Shown piece by piece: positions 1 to 10,203 of a DNA stretch of 42,084 nucleotides. The stretch's first letter is position 1. Each line of letters opens with the position of its first letter. Location: NCBI GenBank assembly GCA_964597575.1, contig CAZQXB010000001.1:660511-702594 (forward strand). The letters are read 5' to 3'. Both the position numbers and the translations under genes were made by a program. Origin of the DNA: an uncultured Gammaproteobacteria bacterium. GTDB lineage: Bacteria; Patescibacteriota; Patescibacteriia; Magasanikbacterales; UBA922. Below the pieces are notes generated by a model. It had not been told where the DNA came from. It did not search any database and worked only from the letters and a program-made list of their open reading frames with translations.

Positions 1-1914
1 TTGTATCTTTTCAAGCTTGTCTTGAGGCAAGACATGAGCAACCACATCATCAATACCGACCAAAGAGGCGATGTATTTTGCGGCCCTCTCATCGTCACCA
101 GTAAGCATGACCACTTTGATTCCAAGCTTGTGCAGATCGGCAACAGCTTGCTTGGATTCCTGCTTTATTTCGTCGGCCACCATCACAAAACCAAGCACTT
201 TTTCTTTTGTGGCGAGAATGACGGGCGTTTTACCTTGAGAAGTAAACTCGTGGAGTTTGCCAACATCAAAAGAAAGTTTGAGGTCGCTTACAAGTTTTGC
301 GTTGCCGACAAAATATTCGACATCTTTGATTCTGCCCTTTAAACCTTTGCCTTGTAGGCCTTCAAATTCTGAAGTCTCTAAAAGAGGAATATCTTTTTCT
401 TGAGTATAGCTCACGATAGCGTGCGCTATCGGGTGCTCGGATTTTTTTTCGAGCGAAGCAATGACTGATACAAGTTCGTTCTCACTTAGATCAGAGAGAT
501 TCTCAATATTTACCAGAGTCGGCTTACCTTTGGTAATCGTTCCCGTCTTATCAACCACCACGGTATCGACCTTGTGAAGTTTCTCAAGAGTTGCCGCATC
601 TTTGATGAGTATACCTTCTTTGGCACCCTTACCCACACCAACGATAATAGCAGTCGGTGTGGCCAATCCAAGGGCGCACGGACATGCAATAACTAGAATG
701 CCTACAAAAGAGACCAAACCGAATGAGAGAGCTTGTGAGAAGCCTAAATATTGCGATCCGAATATAAGCCACGCGTCAAGCGCAAGAAACGCGATGACGA
801 GAACGATAGGCACAAATACTGCGGAAATTTTATCTGCCAATGCTTGAATAGGAGCTTTACTTCCTTGAGCATCTTCGACCATTTTGATAATCTGGGCGAG
901 CAAAGTCTCTGATCCAACTTTCGTTGCTTTGAAAGTAAACGAACCGCTGGTATTGATCGTTCCGGCTACCACAGAGTCGCCGATCTTTTTTTGCGCTGGC
1001 ATTGGCTCGCCAGTGACCATAGACTCGTCGATAAAGGAGCCACCTTCAGTTATCACACCGTCTACTGGAATCTTTGCGCCTGGCTTGATAATGACCAAGT
1101 CCCCATGCTTAACATCGTTTACTGAGATCTCGATTTCCTTGCCATCACGAATCACAAGCGCGGTTTTGGCTTGGAGATTGAGTAGCTTTTCAATCGCATC
1201 ACCTGTCTTTATTTTTGATCGTGCCTCTAAATATTTTCCGAGAGCGATAAACGTAATGACCACAATCGTCACGTCGTAGTATTGATATTCAACATTTATA
1301 AAAGGTCGTAATACTTCCTCAAAAGCGGTGACCGCAAAACTGTATAGAAAAGCCGCAACGGTTCCGATACCGATCAGCGTGTCCATGTTCGCTTTGCCGT
1401 AGCGAAGGAATCTATAAAAGCCGAGTAGGTAGGGCTTGCCGACTACAAAAAGAATGTAGGTCGCGAGCAGTGGAAGGAGATGATGAAAAAATTCCATCGT
1501 CGTTACGTTCATTTTCGCCACGATCTCGTACTTCACGAGAATGTCCCAACCCATGATAAAAGCGGCGATAATAGCAAGTGGTATAGCCGAGAGTGCTTTT
1601 GTCCGCATATCAGCGACTTCCGCCAACTTTTCTTTTTTCGATTGATTAAGCCCTAGATGAGAGGCATGTTCTTCTGCTGACATACCCATTTCTTCTGCAG
1701 TTGCAGGAATCTCTAAAGAGTATCCGAGCGGTTCTATCTGCTTGGAAAGATCGTGGGGGTTTGTCTTTGTTGGATCAAAAGAAACTTTGGCTTTTTCTGT
1801 GCCGTAATTCACCTCTGCTGAATGTACGCCCTCAACCTTTTTAAATGTCTTCTCGATGACCGACGAGCACGAAGCGCAATGCATCCCTTTTACTTTGTAA
1901 ATATGTGTACTCAT
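1..1914 (-). CDS. copA: Cu(I)-translocating P1B-type ATPase, 3' end runs off the window
   Basis: Not in the ORF track because it is open at the window edge; translated by hand from ATG at 1914: MSTHIYKVKGMHCASCSSVIEK (HMA domain), NMDTLIGIG, TGEP, IACPCALGLATP, DKTGTITKG, SEHP, MLTGD. 638 codons in frame to position 1. Confidence 0.95.
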   Translation of the reverse strand, partial: MSTHIYKVKGMHCASCSSVIEKTFKKVEGVHSAEVNYGTEKAKVSFDPTKTNPHDLSKQIEPLGYSLEIPATAEEMGMSAEEHASHLGLNQSKKEKLAEVADMRTKALSAIPLAIIAAFIMGWDILVKYEIVAKMNVTTMEFFHHLLPLLATYILFVVGKPYLLGFYRFLRYGKANMDTLIGIGTVAAFLYSFAVTAFEEVLRPFINVEYQYYDVTIVVITFIALGKYLEARSKIKTGDAIEKLLNLQAKTALVIRDGKEIEISVNDVKHGDLVIIKPGAKIPVDGVITEGGSFIDESMVTGEPMPAQKKIGDSVVAGTINTSGSFTFKATKVGSETLLAQIIKMVEDAQGSKAPIQALADKISAVFVPIVLVIAFLALDAWLIFGSQYLGFSQALSFGLVSFVGILVIACPCALGLATPTAIIVGVGKGAKEGILIKDAATLEKLHKVDTVVVDKTGTITKGKPTLVNIENLSDLSENELVSVIASLEKKSEHPIAHAIVSYTQEKDIPLLETSEFEGLQGKGLKGRIKDVEYFVGNAKLVSDLKLSFDVGKLHEFTSQGKTPVILATKEKVLGFVMVADEIKQESKQAVADLHKLGIKVVMLTGDDERAAKYIASLVGIDDVVAHVLPQDKLEKIQ

Positions 1915-1917
1915 AAA

Positions 1918-2193
1918 TTAATTTGAAAGATTGTAGATTTTAAGGAGTTCCTTAATAGCACTGTCCTTATTTTCTTTCATACGCTCAAACGCGCATGTGT
2001 CGAGGTGCCCCGCAAGGAGTTCTTTTTTAACGGTTTTCAAAAGCCCGACCACGCTGTCCGTCTGCTGAATGATTTCGGGACAATATTTGTCTTCCTCAAT
2101 CATCGCAATCACTTTTTCCAAAGTCCCGCGTGCTTGCTTCGCAAGTTTGAGTGACTTTGCCTTTTTTGTTGATAACTTGTTGTCGTTACTCAT
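1918..2193 (-). CDS. csoR: CsoR/RcnR-family metal-sensing repressor
   Basis: 91 aa with YCPEIIQQ...GHLDTC (Cys-His-Cys Cu ligands), directly upstream of copA (3-bp gap). Confidence 0.88.
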   Translation of the reverse strand: MSNDNKLSTKKAKSLKLAKQARGTLEKVIAMIEEDKYCPEIIQQTDSVVGLLKTVKKELLAGHLDTCAFERMKENKDSAIKELLKIYNLSN

Positions 2194-2215
2194 ATTTTTT
2201 GTGATATACTAAACC

Positions 2216-2238
2216 TACTACCTAGGGTATAGGTAGTA
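2216..2238. promoter_or_regulatory. Candidate CsoR operator
   Basis: Perfect 9-bp inverted repeat TACTACCTA-gggta-TAGGTAGTA with a G/C tract at the centre, overlapping the -10 and start of the csoR-copA promoter; resembles TAC/GTA-flanked G-tract CsoR operators. Confidence 0.6.
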
Positions 2239-2263
2239 TAACATTATGAAAATAAATTTGCAA
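2235..2263 (-). promoter_or_regulatory. sigma70-type promoter of csoR-copA
   Basis: Minus strand TTGCAA-17 bp-TATACT with a TGn extended -10. Confidence 0.7.
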
Positions 2264-2277
2264 ACGGCGAAGCAAAA

Positions 2278-2367
2278 CCAAAAAATTTCCTTTCCATTTC
2301 TTTTTCCGCTTCGCGGCGGAGGGGTGGGGGGAGGAGACGCGAGAAAAATGCAAGGAAATTTTTTTGG
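2278..2367. repeat. Imperfect inverted-repeat stem-loop element
   Basis: Arms ccaaaaaatttcctt (2278-2292) and aaggaaatttttttgg (2352-2367), with a perfect 13-bp core, enclose a G-rich loop containing the mini-hairpin CCGC-TTC-GCGG. Confidence 0.65.
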
Positions 2368-2477
2368 CTTTTGCACACGCGAGTCCGCGAGCGTGTCCGA
2401 GGCGCATTGGTTCGCTTCACCAGGCAATCGGAGCGTACGATTTGGGTCAAAGCCACCACGCGCTCCGCGCGTGCGAA

Positions 2478-2654
2478 TCAGTCAAAATCCTGCGGATTTT
2501 TCCCGAAATACATTCGAACTTCGTCCAATACACACCGCCAAAATTGAAAATCCGAATCGGAAGCCGAAATGGGGTCGCGCCGCAGGCGCGACACAAACAC
2601 ATTCCCGCCAAAAATTCCTGAATCCAAAAGGTTTTTCCACGCTCCGCGTGGCTC
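2478..2654 (-). other. Silent alternative 3' end (C-terminal cassette) of the serine recombinase
   Basis: Minus-strand frame EPRGAWKNLLDSGIFGGNVFVSRLRRDPISASDSDFQFWR-CVLDEVRMYFGKNPQDFD-stop. The first 40 codons are identical to LSR codons 461-500; there is no credible start of its own. Confidence 0.75.
2535..2654. repeat. Left copy of a 120-bp perfect inverted repeat
   Basis: Reverse complement matches 4056-4175 base for base; identity stops abruptly at both ends. Confidence 0.97.
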
Positions 2655-2675
2655 CTCGTTTGCCAATACAATTCT

Positions 2676-4301
2676 ATGAATAATCAAACCAAAAAGTTTT
2701 TCATATACACTCGCAAGTCTACGGACGACAAAGACAGACAGGTTCGTAGTATCGCTGATCAGCTTTCAGAGTTAAAGGAGTTAGCGAGAAAAGAGCAGTT
2801 AGATGTTGTTGATGTCTTTGTCGAAAAGCAGACCGCCAAAATACCAGGCCGTCCGGTGTTTGGTGAAATGTTGGAACGAATGGAGCGTGGCGAAGCGACT
2901 GGTATTTTGGCGTGGCATCCCGATAGACTTGCTCGCAACTCGGTAGATGGAGGAAAAATCATCTACCTCGTTGATACTGGCGTCATTTCAGAAATGAAAT
3001 TTCCAACTTTTTGGTTTGATCCGACACCGCAAGGCAAATTCATGCTTTCAATCGCTTTTTCGCAATCCAAGTATTATGTGGACAACCTAAGCGAGAATAT
3101 CAAGCGCGGACATCGCAACAAAGTGAAGGAAGGCATATGGCCTCAAATGTCGCCACTTGGTTATGTGAACAAAAATAAACGAATTGTGCCTGATGAGAAT
3201 ATCGCCCCTCTAATCAAGAAAACATTTGAGGCCTATGCAACTGGAAACTTCACTTTGCGGGAACTTCGCGACAAATTTAACGCACTTGGATTGAAGCGAA
3301 AAAGCGGAAAGGAACTTGCGGTGTCGAATTATCAAAAACTTTTGAAAAATCCAATTTACACAGGTTTGATGTTGTATAACGGTGAAATACACGAGGGCAA
3401 ACACGAACCGATTATCACAAAGAAACTTTTTGATTCTGTTCAGGAAGTGATGATGAGAAAATCTAAGCCGAAATCTCGCGGACTGAAACCATATCTGTAT
3501 CGCGGATTTTTCCGTTGTGGAGAATGTGGTTGCTTTATCACTACTGAAACTCAAAAAGGTCATAACTATTTACGATGTACCAAACGGAAAAATCCTTGTT
3601 CACAAAAGTATACTCGCGAAGAAATCATCACTTCCGAAATTCAAAAGGAAATCAAAAAAGTTTCTTTGCCAGACGATTGGGCTTCTTGGATGTTGGAGGA
3701 GAATAGAAAAGATATGTTGAGTGAAGCCCAATCGTCTACGCTTTTTGCAGACAACACAAAAGCCGATATTTCTCTTTTGGATTCAAAAATAGATAAGCTG
3801 ATGAACGCATATCTTGAGAGCGCACTTTCGCTAGAGGAATATCGTGATGCCAAGAACGCTCTCGTTGCCTCAAAACAGCTTCTCAAAGAGAAATTATCGG
3901 CTTTTGAGCAAAAAGCGAATAATCGGTTCGAACTTACCGAAAAGTTTTTGAAATACAATATGGAATTGGCAAACGAGGGAACAAATGAAGAAAAACTTCA
4001 TTTGTTCAAAAAAGTCGGTTCGAACTTTCAAATTAAGGATCGAACCGTACTTTTTGAGCCACGCGGAGCGTGGAAAAACCTTTTGGATTCAGGAATTTTT
4101 GGCGGGAATGTGTTTGTGTCGCGCCTGCGGCGCGACCCCATTTCGGCTTCCGATTCGGATTTTCAATTTTGGCGGAAGGAGAGGGATTCGAACCCTCGAT
4201 ACCTTTTCAGGTATGCCGCCTTTCCAAGGCGGTGCACTCGACCACTATGCGACCCTTCCATTATTTTTATCGGTCTCATTTTTCTTTCCTCTCGTATATA
4301 A
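2676..4301 (+). CDS. Large serine recombinase/integrase (resolvase + recombinase + Zn-ribbon + coiled coil)
   Basis: Catalytic YTRKST, GRPVF, DRLARN, E-helix (LSENIKRG), PLGY, HEPII, Zn ribbon FRCGECGC...YLRCTKRKNPC, coiled-coil segment. The last 41 aa are read antisense through tRNA-Ser. Confidence 0.95.
   Translation: MNNQTKKFFIYTRKSTDDKDRQVRSIADQLSELKELARKEQLDVVDVFVEKQTAKIPGRPVFGEMLERMERGEATGILAWHPDRLARNSVDGGKIIYLVDTGVISEMKFPTFWFDPTPQGKFMLSIAFSQSKYYVDNLSENIKRGHRNKVKEGIWPQMSPLGYVNKNKRIVPDENIAPLIKKTFEAYATGNFTLRELRDKFNALGLKRKSGKELAVSNYQKLLKNPIYTGLMLYNGEIHEGKHEPIITKKLFDSVQEVMMRKSKPKSRGLKPYLYRGFFRCGECGCFITTETQKGHNYLRCTKRKNPCSQKYTREEIITSEIQKEIKKVSLPDDWASWMLEENRKDMLSEAQSSTLFADNTKADISLLDSKIDKLMNAYLESALSLEEYRDAKNALVASKQLLKEKLSAFEQKANNRFELTEKFLKYNMELANEGTNEEKLHLFKKVGSNFQIKDRTVLFEPRGAWKNLLDSGIFGGNVFVSRLRRDPISASDSDFQFWRKERDSNPRYLFRYAAFPRRCTRPLCDPSIIFIGLIFLSSRI
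4056..4175. repeat. Right copy of the 120-bp perfect inverted repeat
   Basis: Encodes LSR codons 461-500 and ends in TGGCGG, the last 6 nt of the tRNA-Ser gene. Confidence 0.97.
4170..4259 (-). tRNA. tRNA-Ser(GGA)
   Basis: GGAAGGGTCGCATAGTGGTCGAGTGCACCGCCTTGGAAAGGCGGCATACCTGAAAAGGTATCGAGGGTTCGAATCCCTCTCCTTCCGCCA: 90 nt, anticodon arm CCGCC-TT-GGA-AA-GGCGG, long variable arm, GTTCGAA T-loop, encoded CCA. Confidence 0.97.
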
Positions 4302-5048
4302 CCAAGCACCAGAAAGTACGAGAAGAATAGCAAAATATTGCCCCGGAGTCAATCCAGCATAGCGGATGTCGCTCAGGGCAATATCAGTGGCTCGCCAAAA
4401 ATCGAGAATGAACCGAAGTATCCCGTAGTACATGAATAATACGGCACTGTACCAACCAGAAAACTTTTTCGTCCATTTATAACTGAGTGCAAACCAAATA
4501 GCCAACGGGAGCATGGCAATAATTTCAAGGAGTGCCATATCGAGCCGCATCACGCCATCACGCCATGGAGTTGCCAAAAAGCATCCGGGGCATGGCTGCC
4601 CAGCATGATCGTGAATCAACACACACCCTACTCGCCCAATAATCCAACCAAATACTGCGGAATACGACATTAAATCTCCAAGCGCTCGAAGGCTTACAGA
4701 GCCGGTCCTCTTCTTATACCAAACATCCCATAGAATACTTACAGAAGCCCCCAAAAGCCCCCCGAACGAAGAGAGGCCCCCTTGCCATATAGCGAACACC
4801 TCTAGGGGATGCTTCATGAAGTAATCGGGGTAATAGAAGAATACATGAGCGAGACGAGACCCAATAAACCCCCAAATAATAGCGCGAAGAGTGATACCAA
4901 ATATCATCTCCGTGTTATACCCTAATCGTTTACTTTCTCGATTTAAAATAGCGAAAACAACCAGAATTCCGAGGGCTACACAAAGCCCCCATACTTGAAT
5001 AGGAATGAACCCTAACCGAATAACATGGAATTCAAACCACGGGATCAT
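4245..5048 (-). CDS. lgt: Prolipoprotein diacylglyceryl transferase
   Basis: Multi-TM protein with IWQGGLSSFGG, GRVGC..H, YGILRFILDFWR. The stop codon TAG lies within the tRNA-Ser 5' end. Confidence 0.92.
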   Translation of the reverse strand: MIPWFEFHVIRLGFIPIQVWGLCVALGILVVFAILNRESKRLGYNTEMIFGITLRAIIWGFIGSRLAHVFFYYPDYFMKHPLEVFAIWQGGLSSFGGLLGASVSILWDVWYKKRTGSVSLRALGDLMSYSAVFGWIIGRVGCVLIHDHAGQPCPGCFLATPWRDGVMRLDMALLEIIAMLPLAIWFALSYKWTKKFSGWYSAVLFMYYGILRFILDFWRATDIALSDIRYAGLTPGQYFAILLVLSGAWLYTRGKKNETDKNNGRVA

Positions 5049-6391
5049 ACAGAGGCACGGCGAGCAGCACCATCGGCTTCAATAATTTCAATAATTTCTT
5101 CCATTGAATCGACCACATGGTATAACTTTTCGTCTCCAACTGCGATGGTCGCAAATTTCTTTAAGAGTACCTTCTGATTATACTCATCAATATGATTCCA
5201 GAATTTCTTGTCGTACAAAATAATAGGGAGCGGATCCATTTTTCTCGTTTGGATCAGTGTCAAAATTTCAAACAACTGATGCATCGTACCAAGTCCACCT
5301 GGAAAAAAGACAAAGGCTTTTGTTGGGGCAGTTACAATGAGCTTGCGGGTAAATGGAAAACTAAACAAAATAGAACGAGAAAGATATGGGTTCACTTCCA
5401 CATGCTTCCCTACTTTCATACCGATTCCAAGCGATACGCCGCCGGCTTCAAACGTCCCTTTATTTACGGCTTCAGCTACGCCCTTTTTTGCCCCACTTAC
5501 CACTTCGTACCCATGGCGAGCCAGTTCCCCACCCAAGCGATACGCTACTTCATAGTATGGGTTATCTGGAGTAATGCTGTGGGTTCCAAGTACGGTTACG
5601 GCTTTTGACAAACCATTCACAAAATCGAACCCTTCCACAAGTTCAGCCATCACGCGAAAAATCTTCCAATCAATATTTCCTTCACACAGAAAATTATTCG
5701 GTGTTAAGTCACATTCTTGAGAATTATCTTTTACATCCTTTAAAAGTTCGAACACTTCGTCTGCGGTGTCAACCAAATGCCATGAATCTACTTTTTTTGC
5801 CGCAACTGACCCCACGTCAACACATTCGTGTTTCAAAAAGTCGATTAATGGCTGCCAAAATTCTCGACCAACAAGCACAATCGGCGCTTTGGAGAGCATG
5901 CGCTGATCCATCAAATCCACCACTTCAAAAAACTCATCCATGGTACCGTATCCCCCTGGAAAAAACACAAACGCATTGGCAGGCGACGTCAGCATGACTT
6001 TACGTGTGAAGAAGTAGAAGAAGCCAATGGATTCTTTTACATACGGGTTCACTCGCTGCTCCATAGGCAGCTGAATGTTTAACCCAACCGACGGAGCCCC
6101 CACCTCAAACGCTCCGCGGTTCGCCCCTTCCATAATTCCAGGGCCGCCTCCAGTAATAATAGTGAATCCATGTGAACCAAGTTTTGCCCCAACGCCCTGC
6201 GCAATGCGATAAAACTCGTGATCAGCATTAAAACGCGCCGAGCCCATAACAGTAATCTCACGCTTTAATGAAATCAAAAAGTTATACCCCTCTACCATTT
6301 CCGCCATAATACGAAAAATCTTCCATGTATCTCGGTAATCATTTATATCTCTCATTCCACCGGTCGAGGGTTGTAGCGGCGTATTTACCAT
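5045..6391 (-). CDS. LOG-family (TIGR00730-like) protein with two tandem LOG domains
   Basis: TGGGPGIMEGANRG, TRK, PGGYGTMDE in domain 1; repeated WKIFR.MAE.VEG leader, TRK and PGGLGTMHQ in domain 2. Confidence 0.88.
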   Translation of the reverse strand: MVNTPLQPSTGGMRDINDYRDTWKIFRIMAEMVEGYNFLISLKREITVMGSARFNADHEFYRIAQGVGAKLGSHGFTIITGGGPGIMEGANRGAFEVGAPSVGLNIQLPMEQRVNPYVKESIGFFYFFTRKVMLTSPANAFVFFPGGYGTMDEFFEVVDLMDQRMLSKAPIVLVGREFWQPLIDFLKHECVDVGSVAAKKVDSWHLVDTADEVFELLKDVKDNSQECDLTPNNFLCEGNIDWKIFRVMAELVEGFDFVNGLSKAVTVLGTHSITPDNPYYEVAYRLGGELARHGYEVVSGAKKGVAEAVNKGTFEAGGVSLGIGMKVGKHVEVNPYLSRSILFSFPFTRKLIVTAPTKAFVFFPGGLGTMHQLFEILTLIQTRKMDPLPIILYDKKFWNHIDEYNQKVLLKKFATIAVGDEKLYHVVDSMEEIIEIIEADGAARRASV

Positions 6392-7221: not shown

Positions 7222-8372
7222 ATACGTGCAAATTCTTTTTGAGATGATGGACGATTTGTTCGCTCTGGCGGAATGGAGCGCGAAATGTTTAGTAACATTC
7301 CCACAGCCGCCAGTGCGGTTAAAAGCGCAGTTCCTCCGTGGCTCACAAATGGTAAAGGCACACCGGTGAGTGGTAAAATTCCTAGCATGGCGCCGATATT
7401 AAAGAATGATTGGGTCATGAACCAAATTACGATACCGCTTGCCACATATCGCCCAAAAGCATCCGGAGCACGCTTCGCAATACGAAGCCCTCTCCAGGCA
7501 ATAGCAATAAGAAGTGCAATTACCGCAGCAGACACAAAAAAACCCATCTCTTCTGCCACAATGGCAAAAATACTATCGGCATGCACTTCTGGCAAATACC
7601 CAAACTTTTGCCGCGAGTCTGCGTACCCGAGCCCCCACCACCCTCCGGAACCAACCGCAATAAGCGCATTATACATTTGATACCCAATCGCGTCACTCAC
7701 GTCTCCTCCGCGAATGAGGGCAAAGAAAGACGTGAGACGCCGTGCGGCATGAGGCGCAATAGATGCGGCAATCGCAACTCCGGTTACTCCTAAAAGAAGG
7801 AGGGTCCCTAAGTACCGTAAGCCTACCCCGCCAATAAAAAGCATTCCGAAAATAATTACAAATAAAATACTGGCTCCCCCAATATCTGGCTGAAGCATGA
7901 CCATTGCAATAGGAATTCCAGAAACAATAAGCGCCGGAATAAGCCCCTCTTCGAGGCTTTTCATTTTTTCACCCCGGCTCGCCATAAATGCAGCCAAAAA
8001 AATAATCAATCCAAACTTCGCGAACTCAATAGGCTGAAGCGAGAAACCTCCAATCGCAATCCAGTTTTTGGCAATCGTATTATTGGAAGTTCCAAGGCCC
8101 GGAATAAACACACATGCGAGCATGAGAAGTGTACCAAGAAACACCACCGAACTCATTCGCTGCCAAAACGTATAGGGAATTCGATACATGAGAAAGAACG
8201 CTACCGCACCAGGCAGAACTCCGTACATGATTTGACGGGTAACGTAAAAAAAAGTTTCTTCTTTAAAATACCCCCCGATAGCACCGGCTGAGGTGAGCAT
8301 GAGAAGGCCAAACAAAAGAAGACTCCCGAACATGAGGAGAAGTGGCACATCCATGCGTCCGCGGGTGGCCAT
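7218..8372 (-). CDS. ftsW: SEDS-family peptidoglycan polymerase (FtsW-like)
   Basis: QPIEFAK, QPDIG, GSGGWWGLG, LPEVHADSIF, PLTGVPLPFVSHGG. FtsW vs RodA cannot be settled from sequence alone. Confidence 0.85.
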   Translation of the reverse strand: MATRGRMDVPLLLMFGSLLLFGLLMLTSAGAIGGYFKEETFFYVTRQIMYGVLPGAVAFFLMYRIPYTFWQRMSSVVFLGTLLMLACVFIPGLGTSNNTIAKNWIAIGGFSLQPIEFAKFGLIIFLAAFMASRGEKMKSLEEGLIPALIVSGIPIAMVMLQPDIGGASILFVIIFGMLFIGGVGLRYLGTLLLLGVTGVAIAASIAPHAARRLTSFFALIRGGDVSDAIGYQMYNALIAVGSGGWWGLGYADSRQKFGYLPEVHADSIFAIVAEEMGFFVSAAVIALLIAIAWRGLRIAKRAPDAFGRYVASGIVIWFMTQSFFNIGAMLGILPLTGVPLPFVSHGGTALLTALAAVGMLLNISRSIPPERTNRPSSQKEFARI

Positions 8373-8375
8373 ATT

Positions 8376-8738
8376 TTAGATATTAATACGAACGACAAGA
8401 ATAGCCATGACCAAAAGCAAAATTTGGCAAATACAGGCAACCGTATTCACGATGTAGGCAATCACTAAATCACGCGAAGCCAAGCTCCAGCCGAGGATTC
8501 CGTTCACAAGAAGAATAACGAGCCCGACGAGTGGGAGGGTGTAGACCCGCCACCACTCCCCGATATAGTCCACTCCGAAAAGGACATTATAGTGAAGAAA
8601 AATGGGCTCTTCTACAGGGGAAATAAACCATAAAAGCCAGCCCCACATGGCCAAATTCGCAAGGATGCTTAATGCAAGCGGAATAACCACCGGCAACTGA
8701 CGGAAATAGAGACGAAGCGGGTAGATCGGAAGAAGCAT
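8376..8738 (-). CDS. Small membrane protein of unknown function
   Basis: Three hydrophobic segments, LHYNVLFGVD loop, tightly coupled to ftsW, TATAAT just upstream (8748-8753). Confidence 0.75.
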   Translation of the reverse strand: MLLPIYPLRLYFRQLPVVIPLALSILANLAMWGWLLWFISPVEEPIFLHYNVLFGVDYIGEWWRVYTLPLVGLVILLVNGILGWSLASRDLVIAYIVNTVACICQILLLVMAILVVRINI

Positions 8739-8778
8739 AGTAGCCTTATTATAGCGAAGTCAGAGGGAAAATGCTATA

Positions 8779-8807
8779 TTGACAAAAGTGCTCGGCTGAA
8801 GTATAGT
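8779..8807 (+). promoter_or_regulatory. Near-consensus sigma70 promoter
   Basis: TTGACA-17 bp-TATAGT. Confidence 0.8.
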
Positions 8808-8855
8808 ATCGCGTTCCCTCGCACAAGATTGCAGGGACGGAAAAGGAACCAAAGA

Positions 8856-9434
8856 ATGCAAAGCGCAACTGGCAGTATGGTGGTCAACAAGACCATGGAA
8901 ACCATCTTCGCAATCATCTATGGACCGACGAATCTCACCGAAGCAGTCACCATGGATACGATGGGAGCGCGCGTGGACTCGGTGAGGACGCCGTCGAAGG
9001 CGGTCACCAACGAGCTCATCAGGCGTGGTCTCATCACGATCGACCAATCCAGCGGTACGCCGACCAGGGTCGTCCAGGTCTCACCGGTGACAGGTGACCG
9101 GGTTGAGTTCAGGCAGCATGGCACACAGGTGCTGTGCGACTGGACTGCGAATGGTCCAGAACCGAGCGACCGGCTCATCGACGTTCTCTTCTTCCTCAGC
9201 CCCGACCAGTGCAAGGCAGTCCTGGTCGGATCTCACGCCGCCGAAGAGCGCATCAAGTGGATCACTTGGTGGCGTACGCACGCGGAGCTTTGCCGAATGA
9301 ACGGAGAGCACGGTTTCGGGGAAAGCGGCATGGAAGATGAAATCGAGGCTCACCCCATGGAGAAGTCACGCGAAAACCGCGAACCCGCGTTCGACGGCGA
9401 GGATCAGTTCCCGCTCTTCGATCCGCGGCCCTAG
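8856..9434 (+). CDS. Orphan hypothetical protein
   Basis: Long ORF behind a consensus promoter, AAGGA 8 nt before ATG 8856 (track start 8829), GC-richer than flanks by eye, terminator downstream. No family recognised. Confidence 0.7.
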   Translation: MQSATGSMVVNKTMETIFAIIYGPTNLTEAVTMDTMGARVDSVRTPSKAVTNELIRRGLITIDQSSGTPTRVVQVSPVTGDRVEFRQHGTQVLCDWTANGPEPSDRLIDVLFFLSPDQCKAVLVGSHAAEERIKWITWWRTHAELCRMNGEHGFGESGMEDEIEAHPMEKSRENREPAFDGEDQFPLFDPRP

Positions 9435-9523
9435 GACATCGCGAGAAAAATCTGCCTTCAAAAACGGCGGAAGCTCCGATCACGGAGAAGACCCGCGGAT
9501 CCAACGCGGGATCAATTGGAGGG

Positions 9524-9559
9524 AACCCGGCCACGTTCATCGGCCGGTTTTCTTTTTTT
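9524..9559 (+). terminator. Intrinsic terminator of the orphan gene
   Basis: CCGGCC-loop-GGCCGG followed by TTTTCTTTTTTT. Confidence 0.7.
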
Positions 9560-9561
9560 AG

Positions 9562-9592
9562 AAAAACAAAAGTAGCCCGGTAAGGGGCTACT
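9562..9592 (-). terminator. Intrinsic terminator of rpmA
   Basis: 8-bp stem AGTAGCCC/GGGCTACT followed by a T-run on the minus strand. Confidence 0.75.
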
Positions 9593-9601
9593 ATTTGAAG
9601 G

Positions 9602-9889
9602 TTATTTTTTTGTTGTCGGAATCACGCTGGCATAGGTAACGGTTTTTCGTGAACCATCAAAGCGAACACGCTTCTTAATGGTAAACTTCACCGCTCCTGC
9701 TACCATGGCGAACAAGGTATCATCCTTGCCACGCCCTACGTTTTTTCCTGGCATAATTGGGGTACCGCGCTGACGCACGATAATTGCACCCGCTTGTACC
9801 AACTCTCCGTCACCAACCTTGGTGCCGAGATACTTAGGCTGGGAATCACGACCTAACCTGGTCGAGCCAGCCGACTTCTTGGTTGCCAT
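9602..9889 (-). CDS. rpmA: 50S ribosomal protein L27
   Basis: [22 protein letters not shown]...IIVRQRGT...GKDDTLFA. Confidence 0.97.
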
Positions 9890-9905
9890 ATATTCTGTGG
9901 CAAAG

Positions 9906-9995
9906 CCATTATAATCGCCCGAACTTTCGCTCGGGAACCGCCCGCCCCTGCCTCCTTTGACGAGGTGCGTCGTTAACCGTGTCGTTAAGTAATGG
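9906..9995 (-). ncRNA. Candidate structured 5' leader of rpmA
   Basis: Lies between the promoter and rpmA; CCATTA/TAATGG closing stem, TTAAC/GTTAA, CCTC/GAGG and CCCGAGC-GAAA-GTTCGGG stems. No family recognised. Confidence 0.45.
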
Positions 9996-9999
9996 CCTC

Positions 10000-10028
10000 A
10001 GTATAGCGAAGGGTCAGCCCCATGTCAA
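10000..10028 (-). promoter_or_regulatory. sigma70 promoter upstream of the rpmA leader
   Basis: TTGACA-17 bp-TATACT on the minus strand. Confidence 0.8.
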
Positions 10029-10051
10029 GAGGTTCGCCGAGTTTTAGTACC

Positions 10052-10079
10052 AAAAAAGAGCCTTCGAAAAAGCTCTTTT
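10052..10079. terminator. Bidirectional-type intrinsic terminator downstream of the lipoprotein gene
   Basis: AAAAGAGC-loop-GCTCTTTT with A/T tracts on both sides. Confidence 0.7.
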
Positions 10080-10203
10080 ATAGGAAGGCCGGTGCAGGGA
10101 ACAGAACGTTCACTGCTTATGACCGGCCGGAAGGCGACGCGGAATCATACAGAACAGATTCAACTGCGTGCGACTGGTGAGGCTAGAGGACTTGCGGGAG
10201 GCG

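Follow-up and report, generated by a model that had tools for sequence, protein, structure and literature searches.

Why should a recombinase gene lie inside an inverted copy of its own 3' end? The question is posed by a stretch of 42,084 nucleotides (nt) from an uncultured bacterium of the Patescibacteriota (Magasanikbacterales, UBA922 in the GTDB), referred to here in its entirety as the window (contig CAZQXB010000001.1 of GenBank assembly GCA_964597575.1, positions 660,511 to 702,594, forward strand). A first-pass annotation had read the locus as a candidate two-state switch in which a large serine recombinase (LSR) inverts its own gene and so exchanges one C-terminal tail for another. Our analysis points to an answer that we consider probable: the window holds the recombinase end of an LSR integrative element of about 7.7 kb, inserted at the 3' end of a tRNA-Ser(GGA) gene and carrying two mirrored copies of the attachment site attP, and the tail is swapped by integration.

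A perfect inverted repeat around a large serine recombinase gene

A repeat search of the window found that positions 2535-2654 and 4056-4175 are exact reverse complements (120 nt, 100% identity) separated by a spacer of 1401 nt; chance cannot produce a perfect repeat of this length in 42 kb. The open reading frame (ORF) at 2676-4301 on the forward strand encodes 541 amino acids (aa) that include the Pfam domains Resolvase (PF00239, residues 9-154, E 1.9e-19), Recombinase (PF07508, residues 177-259) and Zn_ribbon_recom (PF13408, residues 274-326), and the product is therefore an LSR. Its serine nucleophile motif, YTRKST, occupies residues 10-15, with the K-S-T invariant in 38 aligned relatives and paralogues, and its nearest solved relatives by sequence are the SPbeta and A118 integrases. 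Long helices at residues 332-430 of a low-confidence structure model hint at the inserted coiled coil of LSR proteins. An exact-protein look-up with the 541-aa product gave no match.

The right arm of the repeat encodes codons 461-500 of the gene (EPRGAW...FQFWR). Residues 1-500 are borne by the element, and residues 501-541 form a 41-aa tail that is read antisense from the tRNA-Ser(GGA) gene at 4170-4259 (reverse strand) and the 3' end of lgt, the frame traversing the entire tRNA gene and 57 nt of lgt. The reverse complement of the left arm continues in the same frame into CVLDEVRMYFGKNPQDFD and a stop codon at 2478-2534 (ORF 2478-2687, reverse strand), and the corresponding product would have 518 aa. 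On all of these points the ORF list, the repeat search and the tRNA call bear out the first-pass annotation, which had described the exact repeat, the 41-aa antisense tail of a 541-aa protein, the in-frame tail of 18 aa and a stop in a 518-aa protein, and a geometry in which a crossover within the arms inverts 2655-4055, keeps the ORF and swaps its tail.

Such a repeat might be an assembly or amplification chimera or the relic of a single duplication. Its length is near common assembler k-mer sizes and the contigs of many assemblies break at it, yet this explanation now deserves practically no credence. All four junctions of the repeat are spanned by contigs of independent public metagenome runs (run X2, records 10 and 13, covering 2262-2564 and 2625-4085; run X1, record 8, covering 4146-4800), and an independent assembly (L085) is 98.7% identical to the window over positions 1-4223 and has the same 120-nt repeat and 1401-nt spacer; the repeat sequence is therefore real. 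The same layout recurs in about 130 independent assemblies made by different assemblers, with arms that vary between loci yet match within each, and a paralogous clade is built in the same way. The chimera and the one-off relic, which the first-pass annotation had itself named as the outcomes fatal to its proposal, are ruled out by this family-wide conservation.

The family is large. At E <= 0.001 the LSR has 7455 related proteins, the best 120 of which are 80-100% identical to the query, and the source names of the relatives point to Patescibacteria (Liptonbacteria, Pacebacteria, Shapirobacteria, Minisyncoccia). From about 900 relatives matched we examined 160 loci, 80 from species genomes and 80 from metagenomes, whose flank layouts were assigned by a motif- and tRNA-based classifier together with hand checks. 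Self-comparison revealed an inverted repeat of about 120 nt, with a spacer of 1399-1404 nt, in nearly all of the 160 loci that have enough upstream DNA; the search among homologues of the candidate phyla radiation (CPR) that had been proposed with the first annotation thus finds the upstream inverted copy of the LSR 3' end throughout the family. Within a locus the arms are 100% identical in 54 of 88 canonical loci in which the repeat was called, and at least 98% identical in 68 of the 88; between loci they are 77-97% identical, and the two arms therefore evolve in concert. Relatives were sought in viral contigs and none was found there, and nothing therefore suggests a phage.

A paralogous LSR clade, 40% identical in sequence, has the same build and is docked at tRNA-Ala. 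In locus L001 its arms lie at 8305-8436 and 9863-9994, its gene at 8459-10144 and the tRNA-Ala at 9989-10062. The paralogue element stands directly beside an element of the first family in two loci (L001:6632-10144, at tRNA-Ala, and L054:4882-8436), with nested inverted repeats of its own and a single cargo gene, whose product is, in L001, a multi-pass membrane protein of 447 aa and, in L054, a protein of 311 aa; these two loci are tandem islands of the two families.

Attachment sites and the exchange of C-termini

We use P for the arm formed by the 3' end of the LSR gene and P' for the module at 2262-2534. The order along a locus is host flank-GCGG-P', cargo, an inverted P'-GCGG-P, 21 nt, and the LSR gene running into P-GCGG-tRNA-Ser. 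In this arrangement the right copy of the repeat is attR (P arm, GCGG core, tRNA-Ser), the left copy belongs to a complete inverted attP (P arm, GCGG core and a P' arm of about 270 nt), and a far inverted copy of P' is attL, closing the cargo cassette. The left copy had first been taken for a mere copy of codons 461-500; it is such a copy, and that description fell short of the whole, which is a complete inverted attP with a third inverted P' about 3.5 kb to the left of the window.

The P arm of attR (4056-4175, forward strand; codons 461-500, with hairpins at 4059-4073 and 4118-4136) ends in the core at 4172-4175 (forward strand), the presumed crossover region; in the tRNA the same positions are the final two bases of the acceptor stem, the discriminator and the first C of CCA. 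These four bases, GCGG, are invariant in 66 of 66 aligned arms. The target (attB) is the tRNA-Ser(GGA) gene at 4170-4259 on the reverse strand, called by ARAGORN and matched by the Rfam tRNA family at 54.5 bits; with its final 6 nt (CCGCCA) provided by the P arm, the gene remains whole. The left P arm, that of the internal inverted attP (2535-2654, reverse strand), has its core at 2535-2538 as CCGC, GCGG on the other strand, and the 21 nt at 2655-2675 (forward strand) separate this site from the ATG of the LSR gene. At the core, 4-8 nt are common to the P and P' repeats.

Besides the window, 90 loci have a junction between the P arm and a tRNA-Ser gene, and five anticodons are represented among them. 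One relative is docked at tRNA-Asp(GTC) instead (L106:4221-4352). In a minority (L019:6496-6570, L095, L128, L144) GCGG is joined to sequence other than tRNA, giving tails such as ATRVKYP.., DTRVKYP.. and DTWVKCL; a tRNA and Rfam look at these targets found neither, and to judge from their sequences such junctions form a second target class.

The P' arm has two parts. The proximal part (2478-2534, reverse strand) holds the native 18-aa tail CVLDEVRMYFGKNPQDFD and its stop codon, unlinked to the gene in the state seen in the window. The distal part (2262-2477, reverse strand) is untranslated, follows the native stop codon, is dense in hairpins and has 57% GC compared with about 42% around it, with an inverted repeat at 2280-2299/2345-2364; it would be the 3' untranslated region or terminator of the un-integrated recombinase gene. 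Its contig depth is 2-3 times that of its flanks, and the sequence that adjoins it varies from run to run. We rejected a free-standing RNA gene here, since an Rfam search of the arm found no family and its fold is no better than that of shuffled sequences (z-score -1.4). Some contigs of runs X1, X26 and X27 have, in place of about 100 nt of P' (2406-2505), the 28 nt GCATCATTGGTC[G/A]TCAGGGTTCAATTCA, a shorter variant of the arm that circulates in the same communities. A 145-aa ORF at 2246-2683 (forward strand) spans the P' arm and the left repeat arm and is gene-called in L170-L173 with no Pfam family; it is most likely a by-product of the GC-rich repeat. For annotation, this ORF and the 541-aa "protein" are both by-products of the structure of the element.

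The second inverted copy of P' was found in 31 relatives, 0.8-4.7 kb further upstream, 189-290 nt long (some at the short end of this range being cut by contig ends) and mostly 99-100% identical; in these relatives both ends of the element lie within one locus. From assembly L085, whose sequence opens on the final 36 nt of the left P' arm, attL can be located some 3.5 kb to the left of window base 1. Junctions of attL at the core are seen in L166-L169. In L166, L167 and L168 the P' arm of the cassette matches window 2262-2538 at 277 of 277 nt and at the core meets three host flanks unrelated to one another, one of which is the sequence that follows position 2538 in run X4; the identity of the window with these attL arms stops at 2538.

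These junctions are what the reading that we favour would produce. The element would carry two mirror-image copies of a single site, P-GCGG-P', with an inverted pair of 120-nt P arms around the recombinase module and an inverted pair of P' arms, each about 200-290 nt long, around the cargo. A crossover at GCGG between the element and the end of the tRNA gene would join the LSR gene to the tRNA (attR, the right copy) and carry the native tail and the untranslated stretch to the far end of the cargo (attL), the integration step itself swapping the C-terminus, while the second inverted attP (2262-2654) would stay intact between the cargo and the LSR gene. Since attP lies inside the 3' end of the gene, with the core at codon 500, integration at tRNA-Ser replaces the conserved tail directly and no inversion is needed.

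The C-termini of the relatives agree with this account in two respects. After the shared ...FQFWR, most of the best 120 relatives continue with a sequence like x-x-D-S-N-P-R, which is the antisense of the tRNA T-arm, and a few have other tails; the tails on the tRNA side range from 2 to more than 70 residues and are set by whichever tRNA is hit. About 13% (16 of 120) end instead in a conserved tail, CVLDEVRMYFGQNPQDFD or variants such as CLLDKVRNYFEQNPND. Full-length relatives such as P0020, P0033 and P0064 have the native tail of the window, CVLDEVRMYFGKNPQDFD, as their C-terminus. Among 116 upstream copies of this native tail, 51 of them unique, the entropies at codon positions 1, 2 and 3 are 0.48, 0.27 and 0.76, and single-base codon differences divide into synonymous and non-synonymous as 3233:2325 in the LSR frame, with 1490:2859 and 537:5044 in the other two. 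The native 18-aa tail is thus genuine coding sequence under purifying selection. It follows that the joined gene P-GCGG-P' (518 aa here) must be translated at some stage, the simplest candidate being the excised form in which attL and attR are re-joined. The tail does not look like an ssrA-type tag, and an AlphaFold model of a native-tail relative (P0033, 38 sequences; mean predicted local distance difference test score, pLDDT, of 54.6, below 50 at residues 414-518) is uninformative about it. Of the two alternative tails in the first-pass annotation, then, the native one holds up as selected coding sequence; the tRNA-side one is arbitrary read-through and gives no second designed isoform.

The arms also carry information at the level of nucleic acid. 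The hairpin at 4059-4073 is nearly invariant among aligned P arms. That at 4118-4136 has three pairs with compensatory changes, and its covariation (0.195) exceeds that of shuffled alignments (0.040; 0 of 500 shuffles as high); the compensatory changes alter residues (SRLRRD/SALRAD), and it is therefore the nucleic-acid structure that is selected, 40-60 nt from the core. Counted by thirds of the arm, mismatches between the two arms of a locus fall from 35 (inner) through 17 (middle) to 6 (core side), and the core-side third is among the most variable parts of the arm between loci; the two arms therefore match most closely at the expected binding position of the enzyme. The loop of the invariant hairpin, CCACGC-GGA-GCGTGG (window 4065-4067), reads TCC (the reverse complement), TCT or ACT in L136, L086, L046, L056 and L078; the TCC version would result if the small palindrome itself flipped.

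Constraint of this kind invites the proposal, which is compatible with our reading and to which we lend some limited weight, that the internal attP is mainly a binding site through which the recombinase represses itself, with hairpins of P' and P stopping transcription between cargo and LSR gene and ending the tRNA transcript, and with arm identity as a by-product of gene conversion. It is in keeping with an attP that ends 21 nt before the ATG, with the divergence of the cargo operon and the LSR gene from that site, and with the P-arm hairpin that is maintained despite its amino-acid cost. In 26 of 31 cassettes, moreover, the first cargo gene at the LSR-proximal end, divergent from the LSR gene, encodes a regulator of 64-88 aa (HTH_3/XRE); the window has CsoR there. 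What speaks against the proposal is that an operator would need about 50 bp and not 390 bp kept identical, that the hairpins are not followed by a terminator-like U-tract, and that a promoter and terminator scan found nothing convincing in or beside the arms. Metatranscriptome contigs, which lack strand and 5' ends, give the LSR gene a depth similar to that of the cargo.

Orientation of the recombinase module and exchange of cassettes

Does the module nevertheless flip? Of the loci examined, 91 including the window have P' upstream of the module and tRNA-Ser downstream, and a further 20 have P' upstream and some other sequence downstream, mostly truncated or uncalled tRNA-like tails. At least eight, checked by hand, have P' on both sides (L032, L081, L083/L084, L086, L089, L090, L164, L170), a class to which the classifier alone assigned three; two have tRNA on both sides (L024, L033), two have tRNA upstream and a contig end downstream (L041, L136), and two have the flipped layout with tRNA upstream and P' downstream (L082, L162). 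The window orientation therefore accounts for about 110 of the 126 loci with both flanks readable. These are counts across assemblies: the contigs are built from 31-mers, which are shorter than the identical 120-nt arms and do not differ between the two states, and a search for Nanopore or PacBio runs covering the region found none. Most of the non-canonical loci have non-identical arms (77-95%), a pattern that is better explained by tandem arrays, or by recombination between resident copies that differ, than by a standard element that has flipped. The four loci with tRNA upstream and no P' downstream (L024, L033, L041, L136) were considered as proof that the internal attP is used and set aside, because their comparable arms are 79-89% alike, which again fits recombination between two resident copies. 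By this reckoning a single orientation appears to be the majority state in nearly all sampled populations, which speaks against a balanced switch; the recombinase module may nevertheless flip rarely or transiently.

The counts bear directly on programmed self-inversion, in which 2655-4055 is flipped either by the recombinase or by RecA at the identical arms, so that the enzyme alternates between a 518-aa and a 541-aa form unlike in activity, stability or expression; the window orientation would then be a quiet resting state from which a rare flip re-arms the enzyme. We regard this as unlikely. The balanced two-state form of it, as first proposed, finds no support in counts so one-sided, and the two clear flips (L082 and L162) have arms that are only about 77-80% alike, as would be expected of products of recombination between copies or of integration through the other attP. 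In its favour are the exact geometry with both frames open, the existence of those flips together with an upstream tRNA beside 100% identical arms in L136, the homogenised arms with their closest match beside the core, and the retention of the layout in the 40%-identical paralogue. Arrays of the type seen in L170 and L054, with the right arm joined to a P'-like arm of another cassette, are compatible with an enzyme that accepts attR-like targets. The selection on the native tail even where it stands unlinked upstream of the gene points the same way, but integration and excision already explain that selection, and the tRNA-side tails are arbitrary in length and sequence. The A118 integrase, a model LSR, moreover carries out no attP x attL or attP x attR reaction, and its attP x attP reaction runs at less than 5% of attP x attB (PMC3556126). 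In the integrative reading that we prefer, the window orientation would be a stable resting state, inversion of the recombinase module would be rare at most, and gene conversion would keep the arms identical.

Exchange of the cargo is more readily documented. The right part of the cassette of this element occupies 1-2261 (reverse strand) and consists of copA, for a P-type ATPase (1-1914, cut by the start of the window), and a gene for a CsoR-type metal repressor (1918-2193; Pfam Trns_repr_metal). The full copper cassette, as seen in L085 and L170, encodes a cupredoxin, an HMA/DsbD_2 protein, a 375-aa protein, CopA and CsoR. Long left-hand contigs of public runs all end at 2291, and the same cassette and recombinase are found at differing junctions in different assemblies. 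L170 has the same LSR gene and copper cassette at 99% identity as far as window position 4176, where its right core is joined not to a tRNA but to the P'-like arm of another cassette, with the tail SIADDVRTEIVHYLSTKVVK; that cassette carries ThsB_TIR and methyltransferase genes. The cargoes of L032 and L062 are 99.5% identical over 2299 nt and inverted relative to the LSR gene, with breakpoints at the cores, and their LSR bodies are 84.6% identical; L018 and L038 share 95.7% identity in the cargo compared with 88.6% in the LSR. The cargo is thus transferred from one recombinase module to another in GCGG-bounded units that can lie either way round. Among the genes carried in the family are those for copper resistance, restriction-modification, Thoeris-type defence and transporters; the cassettes showed no replication gene.

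The exact CsoR and cupredoxin sequences of the copper cassette occur in 136 and 108 public assembly blocks, mostly from wastewater or sludge, and the cassette (L166-L178) has at least four genomic contexts; it looks like one that has spread recently. To the left of attL in L032:1965-2160, and in the equivalent places in L062, L064 and L028, lies GCGG with about 200 nt of degenerate, expanded tRNA-Ser-like sequence and a terminator-like hairpin. Such stretches look like joints left by earlier insertions.

Mirrored sites of this kind would make both modules exchangeable and invertible units, and the spare attP may serve cassette exchange, autoregulation or a re-arming flip. A stronger form of the idea, which we think improbable, is that the mirrored attP pair is a working device, a natural dock-and-cassette system free of accessory factors. 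The recombinase may then quiet itself on integration through loss of the native tail; a rare flip between the internal attP and attR may re-arm it and would at the same time convert antisense read-through from the tRNA operon into sense read-through; and elements may trade or invert cassettes bounded by GCGG, much as cassette exchange does in the laboratory. If true, this would be the first natural LSR whose directionality or activity is set by the rewriting of its own C-terminus and not by a separate directionality factor.

Several points weigh against the integrative reading even in its plainer form. Integration through either attP should make both orientations common, yet one dominates. Identical arms imply ongoing recombination between them, and inversions should be expected from the same process. 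Neither the excised circle with two attP sites nor an empty attB of this host was observed; the circle had no match in viral contigs, and its junction sequence is that of the internal attP. No directionality factor was recognised when 115 cargo ORFs were clustered, the single recurrent family being the HTH_3 protein of 26 of 31 cassettes. The role of the spare attP, finally, is one that we infer.

Relation to known systems and neighbouring genes

In its domain composition (Resolvase, Recombinase and zinc ribbon) the enzyme resembles the LSR proteins of phages and elements (A118/LI, SPbeta SprA, Bxb1, phiC31, Ccr of SCCmec, TnpX), and the elements have in common a short core in a conserved host gene, attL and attR junctions and cargo beside the gene. 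The present family differs from these in having attP within the 3' coding end of the recombinase gene itself and, in every member, a further complete attP retained internally in inverted orientation; it targets tRNA-Ser genes at their 3' ends whatever the anticodon, its elements measure only 3-8 kb and no directionality factor is recognised.

The placement of an attachment site within an ORF has precedents. In mycobacteriophage integration-dependent immunity and in SSV1-type integrases attP lies inside an ORF and integration replaces or removes a C-terminal part; as in the window, the un-integrated form has a conserved tail. These systems use tyrosine integrases, and in the mycobacteriophages the rewritten gene is that of the repressor and the tail is a degradation tag, whereas the gene rewritten here is that of the serine recombinase itself. 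We know of no such system that keeps an inverted spare site.

A recombinase gene between inverted recombination sites is also found in the serine invertase switches (Hin/hix, Gin, Cin, Pin). Those enzymes are small (about 190 aa), with a C-terminal helix-turn-helix, 26-bp sites and an enhancer, whereas the enzyme of the window has 541 aa and LSR domains; both orientations are readily found in invertase systems, whereas the present family has sites of the attP and attR type and one dominant orientation. The circle that we infer for the excised element, in which two long inverted repeats bound two invertible unique segments, is built like the yeast 2-micron plasmid with its Flp/FRT system. Flp is a tyrosine recombinase and serves the amplification of plasmid copy number. 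Engineered phiC31 cassette exchange, in which paired inverted sites swap cassettes in either orientation, offers a parallel to the L032/L062 pair; cassette exchange with two inverted attP sites is a laboratory design with, to our knowledge, no natural counterpart. The tycheposons of Prochlorococcus are, like this element, small cargo elements at tRNA genes of streamlined bacteria; most have tyrosine recombinases (910 of 937), a minority LSR proteins, and many carry replication genes (bioRxiv 10.1101/2020.12.28.424599). In the text of that paper "attP" is absent and "inverted repeat" occurs in the title of a reference only.

We found no description in the literature of an internal inverted attP, of the two-module build or of the tRNA-Ser 3' end as target, and the small elements with a mirrored insertion site in CPR bacteria are apparently a family that is very common and undescribed. 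Many relatives are 80-97% identical across differing lineages of Patescibacteria, tiny-genome bacteria with very few described mobile elements, and the family appears to be a main vehicle of theirs for accessory genes. Its enzymes recognise a near-universal target, the 3' end of tRNA-Ser. Were the spare site functional, it could provide a natural route to reversible or cassette-exchange LSR reactions that do without a directionality factor, which is of interest for genome engineering.

On the host side of attR, the lgt ORF (4245-5048, reverse strand) ends inside the tRNA-Ser gene and overlaps tRNA bases 1-15 (4245-4259). Beyond it lies a 448-aa ORF (5045-6391, reverse strand) with an internal tandem duplication, marked by two pairs of direct repeats, 5267-5353/5924-6010 and 5617-5668/6274-6325, the copies of each pair being 657 nt apart; this suggests a protein in which one domain is present twice, fused in tandem.

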